Below the pieces are notes generated by a model, which saw nothing but the letters and a program-made list of their open reading frames with translations, did not search any database and was not told the origin of the DNA. The position numbers were made by a program, and so were the translations under genes. Shown here piece by piece: positions 2,668 to 9,030 of a stretch of 9,030 nucleotides of DNA (the stretch's first letter is position 1; every line of letters begins with the position of its first letter). The stretch comes from a virus (taxonomy: Duplodnaviria > Heunggongvirae > Uroviricota > Caudoviricetes), in the IMG/VR virus record IMGVR_UViG_2706794687_000015; one strand, 5' to 3'.

Positions 2668-3085
2668 ATGCCATCTACACGCTATCAAAAAATCAATGCC
2701 CATCACTATCGCCATATATGGGTCGTTGGTGATATTCATGGTGAATATCAGTTATTACAATCCCGTTAACATCAACTCTCTTTTTACCCTGAAACCGACT
2801 TACTTATTTCCACAGGCGATAATATTGATCGTGGGCCGAAGAGTCTTAACGTGCTGCGCCTGCTAAACCACCCCTGGTTTACGTCGGTTAAAGGCAACCA
2901 CGAAGCGATGGCGTTGGATGCATTCGAAACTGGCGATGGAAATATGTGGCTTGCCAGCGGTGGTGACTGGTTTTTCGATTTAAATGATTCAGAGCAACAA
3001 GAGGCAATAGATCTGTTGCTGAAATTCCATCACCTTCCACATATTATTGAAATCATTAATGACAACATAAAATATGCCATCGCAC
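2668..3085 (+). pseudogene. pphB: Serine/threonine protein phosphatase 2 (PPP family), inactivated by premature stop and 3' truncation at IS1
   Basis: ATG at 2668 with AGGG 7 nt upstream. Translation gives MPSTRYQKINAHHYRHIWVVGDIHGEYQLLQSR, then in-frame TAA at 2767-2769. The same frame continues ...GDNIDRGP...GNHEAMA... (PPP motifs GDxHG, GDxxDRG, GNHE) up to 3085, where the IS1 end begins. About 139 codons remain of an expected ~218. Confidence 0.85.
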
Positions 3086-3100
3086 GGTAATGACTCCAAC

Positions 3101-3604
3101 TTATTGATAGTGTTTTATGTTCAGATAATGCCCGATGACTTTGTCATGCAGCTCCACCGATTTTGAGAACGACAGCGACTTCCGTCCCAGCCGTGCCAGG
3201 TGCTGCCTCAGATTCAGGTTATGCCGCTCAATTCGCTGCGTATATCGCTTGCTGATTACGTGCAGCTTTCCCTTCAGGCGGGATTCATACAGCGGCCAGC
3301 CATCCGTCATCCATATCACCACGTCAAAGGGTGACAGCAGGCTCATAAGACGCCCCAGCGTCGCCATAGTGCGTTCACCGAATACGTGCGCAACAACCGT
3401 CTTCCGGAGACTGTCATACGCGTAAAACAGCCAGCGCTGGCGCGATTTAGCCCCGACATAGCCCCACTGTTCGTCCATTTCCGCGCAGACGATGACGTCA
3501 CTGCCCGGCTGTATGCGCGAGGTTACCGACTGCGGCCTGAGTTTTTTAAGTGACGTAAAATCGTGTTGAGGCCAACGCCCATAATGCGTGCAGTTGCCCG
3601 GCAT
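3101..3604 (-). CDS. insB: IS1 InsB frame (167 aa), expressed as InsAB' fusion by -1 frameshift
   Basis: [19 protein letters not shown]... overlapping the insA 3' end in the -1 frame; canonical IS1 organisation. Confidence 0.9.
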
Positions 3605-3798
3605 CCAACGCCATTCATGGCCATATCAATGATTTTCTGGTGCGTACCGGGTTGAGAAGCGGTGTAAGTGAACTGCAGTTGCCATGTTTTACGGCAGTGA
3701 GAGCAGAGATAGCGCTGATGTCCGGCAGTGCTTTTGCCGTTACGCACCACCCCGTCAGTAGCTGAACAGGAGGGACAGCTGATAGAAACAGAAGCCAC
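3523..3798 (-). CDS. insA: IS1 InsA (91 aa), transposition inhibitor / N-terminal part of InsAB' transposase
   Basis: [42 protein letters not shown]... recognised as IS1 InsA with its zinc-finger Cys cluster. Confidence 0.93.
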
Positions 3799-3853
3799 TG
3801 GAGCACCTCAAAAACACCATCATACACTAAATCAGTAAGTTGGCAGCATCACC

Positions 3854-3944
3854 NNNNNNNNNNNNNNNNNNNNNNNNNNNNNNNNNNNNNNNNNNNNNNN
3901 NNNNNNNNNNNNNNNNNNNNNNNNNNNNNNNNNNNNNNNNNNNN
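3854..3944. other. Run of 91 N (assembly or scaffold gap, or masked sequence) between two IS1 copies
   Basis: Literal N characters in the sequence. Flanked on each side by a complete IS1 copy. Confidence 0.95.
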
Positions 3945-3959
3945 GGTAATGACTCCAAC

Positions 3960-4463
3960 TTATTGATAGTGTTTTATGTTCAGATAATGCCCGATGACTT
4001 TGTCATGCAGCTCCACCGATTTTGAGAACGACAGCGACTTCCGTCCCAGCCGTGCCAGGTGCTGCCTCAGATTCAGGTTATGCCGCTCAATTCGCTGCGT
4101 ATATCGCTTGCTGATTACGTGCAGCTTTCCCTTCAGGCGGGATTCATACAGCGGCCAGCCATCCGTCATCCATATCACCACGTCAAAGGGTGACAGCAGG
4201 CTCATAAGACGCCCCAGCGTCGCCATAGTGCGTTCACCGAATACGTGCGCAACAACCGTCTTCCGGAGACTGTCATACGCGTAAAACAGCCAGCGCTGGC
4301 GCGATTTAGCCCCGACATAGCCCCACTGTTCGTCCATTTCCGCGCAGACGATGACGTCACTGCCCGGCTGTATGCGCGAGGTTACCGACTGCGGCCTGAG
4401 TTTTTTAAGTGACGTAAAATCGTGTTGAGGCCAACGCCCATAATGCGTGCAGTTGCCCGGCAT
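3960..4463 (-). CDS. insB: IS1 InsB frame (167 aa)
   Basis: Protein identical to the copy 1 InsB. Confidence 0.9.
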
Positions 4464-4657
4464 CCAACGCCATTCATGGCCATATCAATGATTTTCTGGT
4501 GCGTACCGGGTTGAGAAGCGGTGTAAGTGAACTGCAGTTGCCATGTTTTACGGCAGTGAGAGCAGAGATAGCGCTGATGTCCGGCAGTGCTTTTGCCGTT
4601 ACGCACCACCCCGTCAGTAGCTGAACAGGAGGGACAGCTGATAGAAACAGAAGCCAC
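4382..4657 (-). CDS. insA: IS1 InsA (91 aa)
   Basis: Protein identical to the copy 1 InsA. Confidence 0.93.
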
Positions 4658-4819
4658 TGGAGCACCTCAAAAACACCATCATACACTAAATCAGTAAGTT
4701 GGCAGCATCACCGAAGTGGTAAAGAAGATAATAAAGAATAATATTTAGGGTTATAGGTCTTAGCCCATTTTAAATGGAAGGCAGACATGCAGCCATGCAT
4801 ACTTCGCATGGCAACATAA

Positions 4820-5161
4820 TTATTTAGACAAACTATCTAATTTTTGCGTCGCTTTTTGTGTTAGGTCGCTGTAACTGATAAACCCTACGTTAGCACCTAC
4901 AATTAACACTAAGAACACTAAGCTGCATATGGATAGAGTGGCAGATTTATGCTTATGGAAAACAAAATATGCTACTATTGCACTTAATATGAAGGAAATG
5001 AATAGAAATATAGATGTTGATGTTTTTAGATATTTTTCAGGAAATAATGGGTGAGCAATAATGTATACAAGATTAAGTAGTATATAAATTGCTACCGGAA
5101 TGAAAATCATGCTCCAGTGTGTATCTTTTTTGGGAGGGATTGGCTGCAAATAATCAGACAC
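4820..5161 (-). CDS. Hypothetical small integral membrane protein, 3 predicted TM helices (113 aa from GTG at 5161, or 96 aa from ATG at 5110)
   Basis: Minus-strand ORF ending TAA (plus 4820-4822). Three hydrophobic stretches: IFIPVAIYILLNLVYIIA, IFLFISFILSAIVAYFVF, ICSLVFLVLIVGANVGFI. Very AT-rich codon usage. No family recognised. Start codon ambiguous: GTG at 5161 has a weak GGA upstream; internal ATG at 5110 has GGAG only 1 nt upstream. Confidence 0.55.
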   Translation of the reverse strand: MSDYLQPIPPKKDTHWSMIFIPVAIYILLNLVYIIAHPLFPEKYLKTSTSIFLFISFILSAIVAYFVFHKHKSATLSICSLVFLVLIVGANVGFISYSDLTQKATQKLDSLSK

Positions 5162-5243
5162 CGTTTTTCCATCAGTTTCAAGAAGAATTACTAGATCTCT
5201 TACTTCACCACTGACTTGAGTGCATCCTTAGTAGTAATGTTAA

Positions 5244-5621
5244 TCATTTTTTCCCTCCAAATACGATGCCCTCTACGTCTTTGGAAGCTTTTTGTGATGA
5301 CCACTCCTCTGAATCAGGTGATTTAATTAAAAATATTGTATCTCCATCAAAAATCGTATTTGTTCCGTAAAAATTCACATTTGATAGATCACCACCAAAA
5401 ACCCTCTGCCCACTCGAGGTAATTGCCTCACCTAATTTAGTAAAATTACCAGCAATAGATGATTTTCTTTTTCCACTTCTATTCAAAGTGGCTTTAATTA
5501 CACCACCACCATCCTTAGAGTTAAATAATTGAATGTCCACTCCAGCAGTTGGTTGTATATATTTTGAAAGCTCTTTCTTGAACTTGTTAATATATTTATC
5601 TTTGTTTTCTTTGTTGGTCAT
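5244..5621 (-). CDS. Hypothetical soluble protein, 125 aa, Lys/Gly/Ser-rich, no Cys or His
   Basis: Minus-strand ORF MTNKENKDKYINKFKKELSKYIQPTAGVDIQLFNSKDGGGVIK...IVFGGKK from ATG at 5621. No signal peptide or TM segment. AT-rich. Lies 82 bp upstream of the membrane-protein ORF on the same strand, which suggests a two-gene operon. No family recognised. Confidence 0.6.
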   Translation of the reverse strand: MTNKENKDKYINKFKKELSKYIQPTAGVDIQLFNSKDGGGVIKATLNRSGKRKSSIAGNFTKLGEAITSSGQRVFGGDLSNVNFYGTNTIFDGDTIFLIKSPDSEEWSSQKASKDVEGIVFGGKK

Positions 5622-5658
5622 TGGTTAGATCCATAGTTCTGGCTGTGATTAGGTGAAA

Positions 5659-5664
5659 GTATAC
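5659..5664 (-). promoter_or_regulatory. Candidate -10 element (TATACT on minus strand) for the two-gene cassette
   Basis: TATACT about 38 nt upstream of the ATG at 5621 on the minus strand. No convincing -35 found. Weak, by-eye prediction only. Confidence 0.2.
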
Positions 5665-5793
5665 AAGGTTTTTAAAGCGAAGATCACTGTTTTGGCTTCA
5701 AGATAGTTTTGATTTATCGTAATCAATCCGCCATAATCCTCTCATCGGAGCCTGAACAACTCCGGTGACTTCTGCGCATTTAAGGGGACTTAA

Positions 5794-5889
5794 ATGCGAC
5801 CACAATCTGAACTCATCACCTTGTCACAGATGCAGAAATGCACCTGCGATTTTCTGCATTCTGCGGTTTCCGTTAGGGAGGCCGTATGA
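5794..5889 (+). CDS. ylcH: Small ORF (31 aa) translationally coupled to ybcN; possibly ylcH-like
   Basis: ATG at 5794 preceded by AAGGGGA. Encodes MRPQSELITLSQMQKCTCDFLHSAVSVREAV. Its TGA (5887-5889) overlaps the ybcN ATG (5886-5888) as ATGA. Position matches ylcH upstream of ybcN in DLP12, but the protein sequence was not verified from memory. Confidence 0.4.
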   Translation: MRPQSELITLSQMQKCTCDFLHSAVSVREAV

Positions 5890-6341
5890 CTCTGCCAGTA
5901 GACGGCATCAAACTCCATCGCGGTAACTTCGCGGCCATCGGCCAGCAGATTCAGCCATTGCTGGATGCCGGGCAATGCTTACGCCTGCAGGTTAAGCCGT
6001 GGCGCGAGAAGCGCAGCCTGTCGCAGAACGCGCTCAGCCACATGTGGTACACGGAGATCAGCGAATATCTCATCGCCCGCGGCAAGACCTTCGCTACGCC
6101 TGAGTGGGTCAAAGACGCGATGAAGCACACCTATCTCGGCTACGAAAGCAAAGACCGTGTAGATGTCGTGTCCGGCGAGGTCACCACCGTCCAATCCCTC
6201 CGCCATACGTCAGAGCTGGAAACCGGCGAGATGTACATCTTCCTGTGCAAAGTCGAAGCCTGGGCGATGAATATCGGCTGCCACCTGACAATTCCGCAGA
6301 GCTGTGAATACCAGCAGCTGCGCGATAAGCAGGAGGCGTAA
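5886..6341 (+). CDS. ybcN: Lambdoid prophage NinB/Orf-family protein YbcN (151 aa)
   Basis: ATG at 5886 with AGGGAGG 5 nt upstream. Protein MTLPVDGIKLHRGNF...REKRSLSQNALSHMW... shares the RSLxQN core with lambda NinB (Orf). Matches DLP12 YbcN in length and sequence as recalled. Confidence 0.85.
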   Translation: MTLPVDGIKLHRGNFAAIGQQIQPLLDAGQCLRLQVKPWREKRSLSQNALSHMWYTEISEYLIARGKTFATPEWVKDAMKHTYLGYESKDRVDVVSGEVTTVQSLRHTSELETGEMYIFLCKVEAWAMNIGCHLTIPQSCEYQQLRDKQEA

Positions 6342-6511
6342 TGGCTACACCGCTTATTCGTGTCATGAACGGGCACATCTACAGAGTATCAAATCGTCGT
6401 AAGCGTAAGCCTGAGCTGAAGCCATCCGAAATACCAACACTGCTCGGATATACCGCTAGCCTGGTTGATAAAAAATGGTTGCGACTGGCAGCAAGGAGGA
6501 ATCATGGCTGA
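6341..6511 (+). CDS. ninE: Prophage NinE-family protein (56 aa)
   Basis: ATG at 6341 overlaps the ybcN stop (TAATG). Encodes [56 protein letters not shown]. Its TGA overlaps the ybcO start (ATGGCTGA). Below the length cutoff of the supplied ORF track. Confidence 0.8.
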   Translation: MATPLIRVMNGHIYRVSNRRKRKPELKPSEIPTLLGYTASLVDKKWLRLAARRNHG

Positions 6512-6794
6512 TTTGAGAAAAGCAGCGCGTGGTCGGGAATGCCAGGTAAGAATCCCTGGCGTATGTAATGGCAATCCTGAAACGTCAGTACTGGCACATA
6601 TCCGGCTGGCTGGATTGTGCGGTACCGGTATCAAACCGCCAGACCTGATTGCCACCATTGCATGTTCTGCCTGTCACGACGAAATCGACCGCCGCACATA
6701 TTTTGTCGATGCTGAGTATGCAAAAGAATGCGCGCTGGAAGGTATGGCGAGAACGCAGGTTATCTGGCTGAAAGAGGGGGTTATTAAGGCGTGA
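6504..6794 (+). CDS. ybcO: Prophage DUF1364-family Cys-rich protein YbcO (96 aa), putative zinc-binding nuclease
   Basis: ATG at 6504 with AGGAGG 4 nt upstream (the track ORF begins at an upstream in-frame ATG at 6465). Protein [23 protein letters not shown]...[11 protein letters not shown] has a Cys4 plus His cluster. Matches YbcO as recalled. Confidence 0.85.
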
Positions 6795-7153
6795 ATACCT
6801 ACAGCATCACATTACCCTGGCCTCCGAGCAATAACCGCTATTACCGCCATAATCGCGGGCGCACACACATCAGCGCAGAAGGGCAGGCATACCGCGATAA
6901 CGTCACCCGAATCATTAAAAACGCAATGCTGGATATCGGCCTGGCTATGCCAGTGAAAATCCGTATTGAGTGCCACATGCCGGATCGCCGTCGCCGTGAC
7001 CTGGATAATCTGCAAAAAGCCGCTTTTGACGCACTCACCAAAGCAGGTTTCTGGCTGGATGATGCTCAGGTCGTTGATTACCGCGTTGTGAAGATGCCTG
7101 TTACCAAAGGTGGGAGGCTGGAACTGACCATCACCGAAATGGGGAATGAATGA
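6791..7153 (+). CDS. rusA: Holliday junction resolvase RusA (120 aa)
   Basis: GTG start at 6791 overlapping the ybcO stop (GTGA). Protein [24 protein letters not shown]... contains the acidic catalytic region RRDLDNL ... [11 protein letters not shown]. Matches E. coli RusA as recalled. Confidence 0.9.
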
Positions 7154-7290
7154 TGTTTGAGTTTTATATGGCAGAACTTCTTCGCCACCGCTGGGGGCAT
7201 CTGCGCTTATATCGTTTCCCCGGTTCTGTTTTGACCGATTACCGAATACTGAAGAATTACGCCAAAACCCTGACAGGAGCAGGAGTATGA
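7150..7290 (+). CDS. ylcG: Small prophage protein YlcG (46 aa)
   Basis: Tandem ATGs at 7150 and 7153 overlap the rusA stop (ATGATG). Encodes [46 protein letters not shown], stop TGA at 7288-7290. Below the length cutoff of the supplied ORF track. Confidence 0.7.
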
Positions 7291-7375
7291 AGTCAGAGAT
7301 AACAATCAACTAATACTGTTTTGTTGATTTTTGCTTGTAATTGGCGTTCTGGTCTGATTTTTGTGGAGTAAGTTG

Positions 7376-7759
7376 ATGCGTGATATTCAGATGGTTCTTG
7401 AGCGTTGGGGAGCGTGGGCGGCTAATAATCATGAAGATGTGACCTGGTCGTCCATTGCCGCCGGTTTTAAGGGATTAATTACTTCAAAAGTAAAATCTCG
7501 CCCGCAATGTTGTGACGATGACGCGATGATTATTTGCGGGTGCATGGCCCGTCTGAAAAAGAACAACAGCGATTTGCACGATTTATTAGTAGATTATTAT
7601 GTAGTCGGTATGACATTCATGTCACTGGCAGGTAAGCATTGCTGCTCTGATGGTTATATCGGGAAAAGGTTACAGAAGGCTGAGGGCATAATTGAAGGGA
7701 TGTTAATGGCATTAGATATCCGGTTAGAGATGGATATCGTTGTTAATAACTCTAATTAA
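7376..7759 (+). CDS. quuD: Late-gene antiterminator Q (127 aa)
   Basis: ATG at 7376 with GGAG 7 nt upstream (the track ORF starts at an upstream TTG). Protein [24 protein letters not shown]...[16 protein letters not shown]... has the Cys-rich zinc-binding region. Matches DLP12 QuuD as recalled. Confidence 0.85.
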
Positions 7760-7793
7760 TATGCCAATTGTTTACTAAAAATTATTAAAAATG

Positions 7794-7811
7794 GGGCGTT
7801 GCAACGCCCCC
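7794..7811 (-). terminator. Perfect 18-bp palindrome GGGGCGTTGCAACGCCCC flanked by A5/T5 runs; likely intrinsic terminator for minus-strand (nmpC) transcripts, possibly bidirectional
   Basis: GC-rich hairpin. On the minus strand it is followed immediately by ATTTTTAATAATTTTT. On the plus strand it is followed by CAAAAATAAA, a poor U-tract. Confidence 0.4.
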
Positions 7812-7899
7812 AAAAATAAAGGGTAATATATAACAGAAGGTTTATATAGTTAGAAGCAAGGTTGTGCTCCTAAAGGAAGTGGCTTGAGGGAGCCACTTA

Positions 7900-7933
7900 T
7901 ATGTTGGGGAGGCAAAGCCTCCCGCAACATATC
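7900..7933 (+). terminator. Strong hairpin followed by CTTTT on the plus strand; candidate tR'-like terminator of the Q-controlled late leader, or nmpC 3' stem-loop
   Basis: Core stem GGGAGGC (7908-7914), loop AAA, GCCTCCC (7918-7924), extended by ATATGTTG / CAACATAT with a 1-nt bulge. Followed by CTTTTAG. A second hairpin AAGTGGCT-TGAGGG-AGCCACTT sits immediately upstream at 7878-7899. Confidence 0.4.
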
Positions 7934-7947
7934 TTTTAGTAATCAAA

Positions 7948-9030
7948 TTAGAACTGGTAAACCATACCTACAGCAACGATATCATCGGTAGCAACGCCAG
8001 ATGCTTTCGTGAAATCGCTCTTATCAATCAGGTTGATTTTGTAATCAACAAAAGTGGACATATTTTTGTTGAAGTAATAGGTTGCACCTACATCAATATA
8101 TTCAACCAGGTCCTGATCACCCCACGCACCCAAGTCTTTTCCTTTAGATTGCAGGTAAGCAACGGACGGACGCAGACCGAAGTCGAACTGATATTGTGCA
8201 ACTACTTCGAAGTTTTGTGCTTTGTTGGCAATATGGTTATTACCAAAAACAGTCATGTTCTGGGTTTCAGAATAGGTGGTAGCCAGATAGATGTTGTTCG
8301 CATCATATTTCAGACCAGCTGCCCATACTTCAGCATTTTGACCAGATGCATTCAGGCTGTTGTTACCGTAGATAACCTGATTATTAGTGCGGTCAGATTT
8401 AGCATAGGTTGCACCTACACCGAATCCTTCATACTCATAAGTAGTGGAGAAACCGAAACCATCACCATTAGCTTCAGTTACGTCAGTGCGGTCATTTTTA
8501 CCCTGATACTGAGCAGCAAAGTTCAGACCATCAACCAGACCAAAGAAGTCGTTGTTACGATAAGTTGCAACACCAGTGGTGCGACCAGTCATGAACACAT
8601 CTGTTTGAGTCCAAGTGTCACCACCGAATTCTGGCAGGACGTCAGTCCACGCACCGATGTCGTATGCTACACCGTAGTTACGGCCGTAATCGATGGAGCC
8701 GTAGTCACCGAATTTCAGGCCAGCGAAGGCAAGACGGGTTTTATCTTTGGAGGAACCTTGAGATTCAGCGCGGTTGCCTTTGAATTCATATTCCCACTGA
8801 CCGAAACCAGTCAGTTGATCGTTGATTTGGGTTTCACCTTTGAAGCCAAGACGGGCATAAGTAGTATCACCATCATCTGCATCATTAGAGGAGAAGTAGT
8901 GCTTAGCATTAACTTTCCCGTACAGATCCAGCTTGTTACTGTCTTTATTATAAATTTCAGCTGCCTGAGCAGACATCGCCATCAGTACTGATGCAGCTAC
9001 AGCAGAAATTGCCACTGTTAATTTTTTCAT
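7948..9030 (-). CDS. nmpC: Outer-membrane general porin of the OmpC/OmpF/NmpC family (360 aa), prophage-encoded, apparently intact
   Basis: Minus-strand ORF from ATG at 9030 (window edge) to TAA at 7948-7950. Signal peptide [23 protein letters not shown], mature N-terminus AEIYNKD, C-terminal ...VGMVYQF with terminal Phe typical of beta-barrel OMPs. Closely resembles NmpC/OmpD as recalled. No IS interruption inside the ORF. Confidence 0.9.

Follow-up and report, generated by a model that had tools for sequence, protein, structure and literature searches.

A conserved orphan protein family tied to a small membrane partner, carried as antisense cargo in a decayed lambdoid prophage

Results

We analysed 9,030 nucleotides of a viral record (IMG/VR IMGVR_UViG_2706794687_000015), hereafter the window, which contain a gene of 125 codons that we call A. 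A represents a conserved orphan family with a confident, unmatched predicted fold, and this family is tied to a membrane partner, B, across bacterial phyla. A and B form a mobile two-gene cassette found in prophages and in genomic islets of several bacterial phyla.

The window holds the right-hand remnant of a lambdoid prophage

The window is a piece of enterobacterial chromosome that consists of mutS (1-2562), two identical copies of IS1 (3101-3830 and 3960-4690) and the right-hand remnant of a lambdoid prophage, whose genes encode NinB, NinE, YbcO, RusA, YlcG, the antiterminator Q and an OmpC/NmpC-type porin. Between the IS1 copies, 91 N (3854-3944) mark an assembly or scaffold gap, and thus the number and arrangement of IS1 copies here are uncertain. 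E. coli CV839-06 and 536 have the portion from the integrase to gene P; in the window IS1 stands in its place (4690-4712), and the nin-Q-porin portion is kept (5886-9030). Downstream of mutS, an ORF of 79 aa (2851-3090) ends at the IS1 boundary and matches no Pfam family; it looks like part of the PphB/PrpB phosphatase gene, the usual neighbour after mutS, in which case IS1 would have truncated it. The same arrangement, with the same lesion in B, occurs in many assemblies, and identical proteins are mostly named Shigella sonnei. The prophage that carries the operon is a decayed lambdoid remnant of the Shigella type, with A-B as its antisense cargo.

Both genes lie in a segment of low GC content. 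On the left it abuts IS1 in the window and, where the prophage is intact, the end of gene P; on the right it stops where a widely conserved region upstream of ninB begins. Scans of the cassette with Rfam and for repeats gave nothing relevant. The features of the segment are as follows.

4712-5707, no strand: low-GC cargo segment, ~34% GC versus ~50% in the prophage; limits from composition and alignment
4748-4766, plus strand: terminator-like site, from a sequence scan
4757-4817, minus strand: two stem-loops directly after the stop codon of B (RNA fold -23.2 kcal/mol, z -3.0)
4820-5161, minus strand: remaining ORF of B, 113 aa from a GTG at 5161
5200-5247, minus strand: original 5' end of B, ATG at 5247-5245, placed by alignment to E. 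coli CV839-06
5244-5621, minus strand: gene A, intact, 125 aa, ATG at 5621 and TGA at 5246-5244
5253-5258, minus strand: Shine-Dalgarno sequence GGAGGG for B
5658-5687, minus strand: weak candidate sigma-70 promoter for A-B (GTGATC, 18-nt spacer, TATACT; 8/12 positions)

Gene A is a real gene under purifying selection

A preliminary description of this DNA had presented the product of A as a Lys/Gly-rich protein of 125 residues with a basic N-terminus and without Cys or His. Recomputing the ORF and its composition confirmed all of this: the product has 13.6% K and 12.0% G, zero Cys and zero His, a pI of 9.5 and a GRAVY of -0.62, and its N-terminus, KENKDKYINKFKK, is basic. The composition describes this orthologue and does not extend to the family, whose means are 7% G, 9% K, 1.3% H and 0.4% C. 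The product has no hydrophobic segment; it is a soluble protein, for which we propose a cytoplasmic location. A protein of E. coli 536 (WP_000182282.1) is 100% identical to it, and the profile of phrog_18061 matches it end to end (residues 1-125 on profile positions 1-125, E 9.3e-85). Pairwise comparison with orthologues at 92% and 76% identity gave dN/dS values of 0.07-0.08. Gene A is a real gene under strong purifying selection, far beyond a chance ORF.

A word-indexed search for A returned close enterobacterial relatives only (Enterobacter, Klebsiella, E. coli and Shigella). When 1.84 billion representatives were searched exhaustively with a profile, the family comprised 111 representative clusters at E below 1e-3, nearly all of them 120-135 aa long and aligned over their full length. 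In an alignment of 79 sequences K100 is invariant, and Y10, G39, F84, G86, T87, N88, W107 and D115 are nearly so. The preliminary description had seen no recognisable catalytic residues; this stands as regards known motifs, and the family nonetheless has its invariant lysine. All 79 aligned relatives match phrog_18061 and no other PHROG, and by these profile matches A appears assignable to phrog_18061 alone, a family with no ascribed function. Neither A nor the 79 relatives match a Pfam family above the cut-off, A has no NCBIfam or PADLOC match above the cut-off, and a sequence-profile search of the PDB with A gave only noise. The remote-homology check that had been proposed for A thus revealed no Pfam, PDB-sequence or known-function relative, and clear homology to a fragment of a phage structural or replication protein, which would have spoken against a regulatory role, was looked for and is absent.

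With the family alignment as input, AF2 modelled A with a pLDDT of 93.9 and a pTM of 0.87. The model consists of a helix (4-19), three strands (27-35, 40-47 and 53-60), a helix (63-70), a long loop, two strands (87-92 and 95-100) and two helices (104-107 and 109-124), in the order a-b-b-b-a-b-b-a-a. Comparison of the model with solved protein folds gave no significant structural neighbour, and a Foldseek comparison with viral models gave one uncharacterised protein and nothing else. Since neither sequence nor structure yields a match, A is predicted to be compact and of the alpha/beta type, with no relative of known function recognisable by sequence or structure.

A is followed by the gene of a small membrane protein

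The stop codon of A and the start codon of B overlap as ATGA (5247-5244), and the Shine-Dalgarno sequence of B lies inside the last codons of A; the same junction is found in locus L002. By this junction the two genes are translationally coupled, and A comes first in a two-gene operon, as had been described. Upstream of A the best signal is the weak candidate promoter listed above, and a stricter consensus scan of the same strand found none. The two stem-loops after B are a possible, putative transcript end, a clean U-run following neither of them; the second is common to the convergent P operon in intact prophages.

In lambdoid prophages of Enterobacteriaceae, A and B occur together wherever the region is present, with a 4-nt overlap (1 nt once). 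Likewise, distant homologues of A, at 30-35% identity, are directly followed by a gene for a protein of 123-153 aa built like B. We compared the gene downstream of A with an HMM of the B family at 37 distant loci (33 metagenomic, 4 genomic). The downstream gene matched in 34 of them (E 1e-9 to 1e-49), mostly with the ATGA overlap; there, as in Enterobacteriaceae, its product has 125-142 aa. At the other three, B is replaced by another small protein that has one or two TM helices and an N-terminal region unlike that of B, which suggests effector replacement. These partners are encoded at L043 6376-6756, L078 2117-2497 and L079 1309-1548, and the first two have the same protein sequence.

The relative P0110 (447 aa) joins an A domain to an HNH nuclease in one protein, a single case seen on two short contigs. 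The nuclease comes with a C-terminal region of ~210 aa that has no assigned type. Stand-alone homologues of this nuclease half exist, and one of them lies directly downstream of SIR2_2 and adjoins two integrases. The loci of the HNH fusion and of the nuclease are L009 246-1589 (P0110) and L049 3838-5759. The HNH fusion and the swapping of membrane partners would fit a regulatory or sensor domain.

The partnership of A and B is, from these gene neighbourhoods, strongly supported. A had been suggested to be the partner of the downstream membrane protein, and the conserved adjacency, from Enterobacteriaceae to Cyanobacteria and Betaproteobacteria, upholds this; what has to be corrected is the partner itself, as the 113-aa ORF of the window is only a remnant.

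The partner gene is frameshifted in the window

Compared with the intact B of E. coli CV839-06, the window is without one base at 5222/5223, which turns GGC into GC at codon 9. The frameshifted reading is MINITTKDALKSVVK*, 15 codons with a premature stop at 5202-5200. The 113-aa ORF that remains corresponds to residues 30-142 of the intact protein of 142 aa (WP_000608370.1, phrog_16940), which is present in E. coli 536, where the intact pair is ECP_RS05855 and ECP_RS05850; the ORF matches positions 30-142 of 142 of the phrog_16940 profile (E 2e-74), the first 29 being lost by the frameshift. It keeps three TM helices, and most of the cytoplasmic N-terminal head is missing. Among the 46 cassette copies in complete E. 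coli genomes, 45 are 1 nt longer than the copy of the window. The assembly collection contains the truncated B in 150 blocks, and in the places read it stands in the same mutS-IS1-cassette context, indicating a lesion of the lineage and not a read error. Since the frameshift leaves B with no start, coupling or head, the two genes probably do not function together here. The A-B module of the window is probably dead or crippled, and A may persist as an orphan.

Intact B is built of a cytoplasmic head of ~35 residues, three TM helices and a short C-terminal tail. The head is hydrophilic and conserved (M-K-[IVL]-G..E-G-T-x-E-E…N-G-L…D-Y). The loop between TM2 and TM3 is basic and rich in K/R, and positive charges are found there and on the N side of TM1. 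From these features B should be a small polytopic inner-membrane protein, its conserved head toward the cytoplasm. Its dN/dS of 0.07-0.19 indicates purifying selection. None of five B orthologues matches a Pfam family above the cut-off, transporters and holins included, and the matches below threshold vary among the orthologues, as plain hydrophobicity would give. For the B of the window, the best PADLOC hit was the '4TM effector' model, at an E of only 0.17.

The cassette occupies a cargo site of lambdoid prophages

The cassette is found in 46 of 5,426 complete E. coli genomes (0.85%), including 536, F11, M-17 and A0 34/86, and in 18 prophage contigs of IMG/VR. In lambdoid prophages it is flanked by the replication genes (O/P or DnaB-type) on one side and the nin region on the other, and its reading direction is opposite to that of the early operon. 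The flanking stretch upstream of ninB (~5707-5869) is present in 2,778 of the 5,426 genomes. This non-coding stretch, conserved in 2,779 E. coli records, also occurs in phages 82, phi80, HK639 and HK225, and it is annotated as a regulator-binding site with -35/-10 signals in phage 82 and as 'IR4' repeats in phi80.

The interval between P and ninB holds ren in lambda, and T5orf172 is among its cargo in related prophages. At locus L007 the interval (5665-7348, 9118-10971) contains colicin-like, colicin-immunity-like, DndB-like and HNH genes. Given this varied cargo at L007, the interval behaves as a cargo hotspot.

The named hosts of the A family are Enterobacteriaceae, Photobacterium, Nitrosomonas, Synechococcus and a Planctomycetota MAG. 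The settings of the pair differ. It lies between early and lysis genes in another temperate phage, and beside ligA, near a ParS/Xre antitoxin, on a contig resembling a marine gammaproteobacterium; elsewhere it adjoins PIN and DUF4160/DUF2442 genes (one setting), a transposase (one setting), or an integrase and a WCX protein (another). Several metagenomic loci have the pair flanked by metabolic genes (EgtB/EgtD, isocitrate lyase), and with such neighbours this small sample of loci displays no clear enrichment in defence islands. Searches by tblastn with A and one distant member returned zero matches in 50,697 deposited phage genomes, phi80 included, and zero in 72,556 plasmids of PLSDB.

Decay of the cassette is repeated. 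IS1 is inserted in codon 48 of A in L001 (E. coli CV839-06, 12831-13528) and in L039 (an IMG/VR contig, 4735-4878), with B intact. The B frameshift of the window type is also present in L026, and L034 has a different one. The insertions in codon 48, together with the IS1-mediated deletion in the window, indicate that IS1 has repeatedly reshaped this locus.

Comparison with known systems

We compared the cassette with PADLOC-DB v2.0.0 (2023; 5,027 models), which gave no match for A, intact B or the distant A member P0146. The supplements of DefensePredictor contain neither the accessions nor the sequences of A and B. Searching the literature by accession, PHROG id and topic, we found no description of A-B, though an earlier one may exist.

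A-B resembles a known layout, the two-gene module of a soluble and a membrane protein carried as prophage cargo. Judged by logic and layout, its nearest analogue is RexA/RexB of lambda, to which neither protein is related. Both are prophage-encoded units in which a soluble protein is followed by a small polytopic inner-membrane protein, nearly equal in size (RexB 144 aa, B 142 aa). Expression independent of the lytic programme, and a cytoplasmic sensor that controls a membrane effector, are features of RexA/RexB that we propose for A-B. The two differ in that A has 125 aa and RexA 279 aa. RexB has four TM helices, whereas B has three predicted ones and a cytoplasmic head. A-B lies in the P-ninB interval and RexA/RexB in the immunity region, and the taxonomic spread of A-B is wider. 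Homology was rejected for both proteins, as hhalign with the family profiles gave a probability of 0.04% for A and RexA, with no Pfam match, and of 0.5% for B and RexB.

Toxin-antitoxin (TA) pairs of the GhoS/GhoT type likewise have a soluble protein first and a small membrane protein second. GhoT has ~57 aa; B is much larger and has a conserved cytoplasmic head. Panacea is a promiscuous antitoxin domain (PMC8832971). It resembles A in that one soluble domain goes with varied effectors, which for A are the B family, another small TM protein and a fused HNH. A-B differs from both in that neither Pfam nor PADLOC links it to those families.

The ren gene of lambda shares with A-B the P-to-ninB interval, whose cargo is non-essential and differs among the related prophages examined. 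It is a single gene of 96 aa on the strand of the early operon, whereas A-B is two genes in antisense; as a homologue of Ren, A was rejected (hhalign probability 0.14%). Lambdoid prophages of the phi80 type carry the Tai (tail-assembly-inhibition) systems (PMC11364771), immunity genes that resemble A-B in being small, moron-type and paired with a second gene. A was rejected as a Tai system, the locus being different and tblastn giving no match in the phage records that include phi80.

Discussion

We tentatively read A-B as a conflict module of the phage-exclusion or addiction type, made of a sensor or regulator and a membrane effector, with a confidence that falls somewhat below even. A would be the cytoplasmic control subunit, either a sensor or an antitoxin-like regulator. 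It may bind the cytoplasmic head of B and either hold B inactive or switch it on. The effector would be B, which on release may damage or gate the inner membrane. A promoter of its own would drive the pair in antisense to the early operon of the phage, and the prophage would gain an abortive-infection, superinfection-exclusion or addiction-type function. Physical contact between the two proteins, a toxic B, the trigger and an effect on phages are what we infer.

This conflict-module reading draws on the swapped TM partner and the HNH fusion, the antisense moron position, the patchy distribution and the repeated decay. The near-obligate pairing, the coupling, the purifying selection on both genes and the character of the cassette as low-GC cargo on the opposite strand, rare beside a common junction, also speak for it, as do the topology of B and neighbours such as PIN, DUF4160/DUF2442, ParS/Xre, an integrase and a WCX protein or, for the stand-alone nuclease, SIR2_2 and integrases. 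Against it stand the lack of tblastn matches to A and one distant member in 72,556 plasmids and 50,697 deposited phage genomes, which is unusual for a classical addiction module, and the facts that there is no PADLOC match, that the loci sampled are not clearly enriched in defence islands, that no strong promoter precedes A and that the HNH fusion is single. A bolder version, in which A-B is an undescribed anti-phage or abortive-infection system that prophages and islets spread among Proteobacteria, Cyanobacteria and Planctomycetota, with A as a sensor or regulator domain whose fold is absent among solved structures and interchangeable effectors (three-TM, other TM, HNH), is possible and on the whole doubtful.

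Could the pair be a pure TA cassette, in which B is a membrane toxin and A its protein antitoxin, selfish and with no dedicated anti-phage role? A and B are an adjacent, co-oriented and coupled gene pair, as TA modules are, with the soluble gene before the membrane gene. Their cassettes are tiny, isolated and patchy across phyla, some copies adjoin PIN, DUF4160/DUF2442 or ParS/Xre genes, and in the lineage of the window B was lost and A retained. However, the tblastn search with A and one distant member found no copy in plasmids. Neither A nor B matches a described TA family in Pfam, NCBIfam or PADLOC, models of the GhoS/GhoT type included. Furthermore, E. coli CV839-06 has an IS1-split A beside an intact B, which would be tolerable only if polarity also abolishes expression of B. 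Many TA modules act in phage defence, and this explanation overlaps largely with the conflict-module reading; as a separate account we consider it unlikely.

Non-abortive superinfection exclusion, in which an A-B complex of the inner membrane would block the DNA of incoming phages and the cell would survive, as with the entry blocks SieA of P22, Imm/Sp of T4 and gp15 of HK97, is in our judgement quite improbable. Prophage cargo antisense to the lytic operon is typical of genes expressed in lysogens, and a small polytopic inner-membrane component is present. Yet many copies are found not in prophages but in chromosomal islets of marine and soil bacteria, and the fusion of A to a cytoplasmic HNH nuclease is a better fit to control of an effector than to an entry block. 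Among the family models of Pfam and PADLOC, those of exclusion proteins included, none matches.

A role outside conflict, be it as a lysogenic-conversion or housekeeping accessory (a transporter or stress protein with its cofactor or chaperone) or as a holin/antiholin-like pair, is very unlikely: metabolic genes are among the neighbours, B carries the label 'VIT1/CCC1 family predicted Fe2+/Mn2+ transporter' in one source and has, like class I holins, three TM helices, but no Pfam transporter or holin family reaches the cut-off, the sub-threshold matches are inconsistent across B orthologues, the cassette runs counter to the lytic operon at a long distance from the lysis genes, and it is confined to 0.85% of E. 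coli genomes and repeatedly inactivated.

For the window, gene A is real and undamaged, but it has been orphaned in a prophage that has decayed, and the two genes there probably do not work as a pair. Elsewhere, uropathogenic and probiotic E. coli strains (536, F11, M-17 and A0 34/86) have the cassette in their prophages. If A-B is a working conflict module, it would be a very compact system of ~0.8 kb, with a soluble subunit that has no known structural relatives and a swappable effector, and the P-to-ninB interval of lambdoid phages would be a place to seek such cargo.
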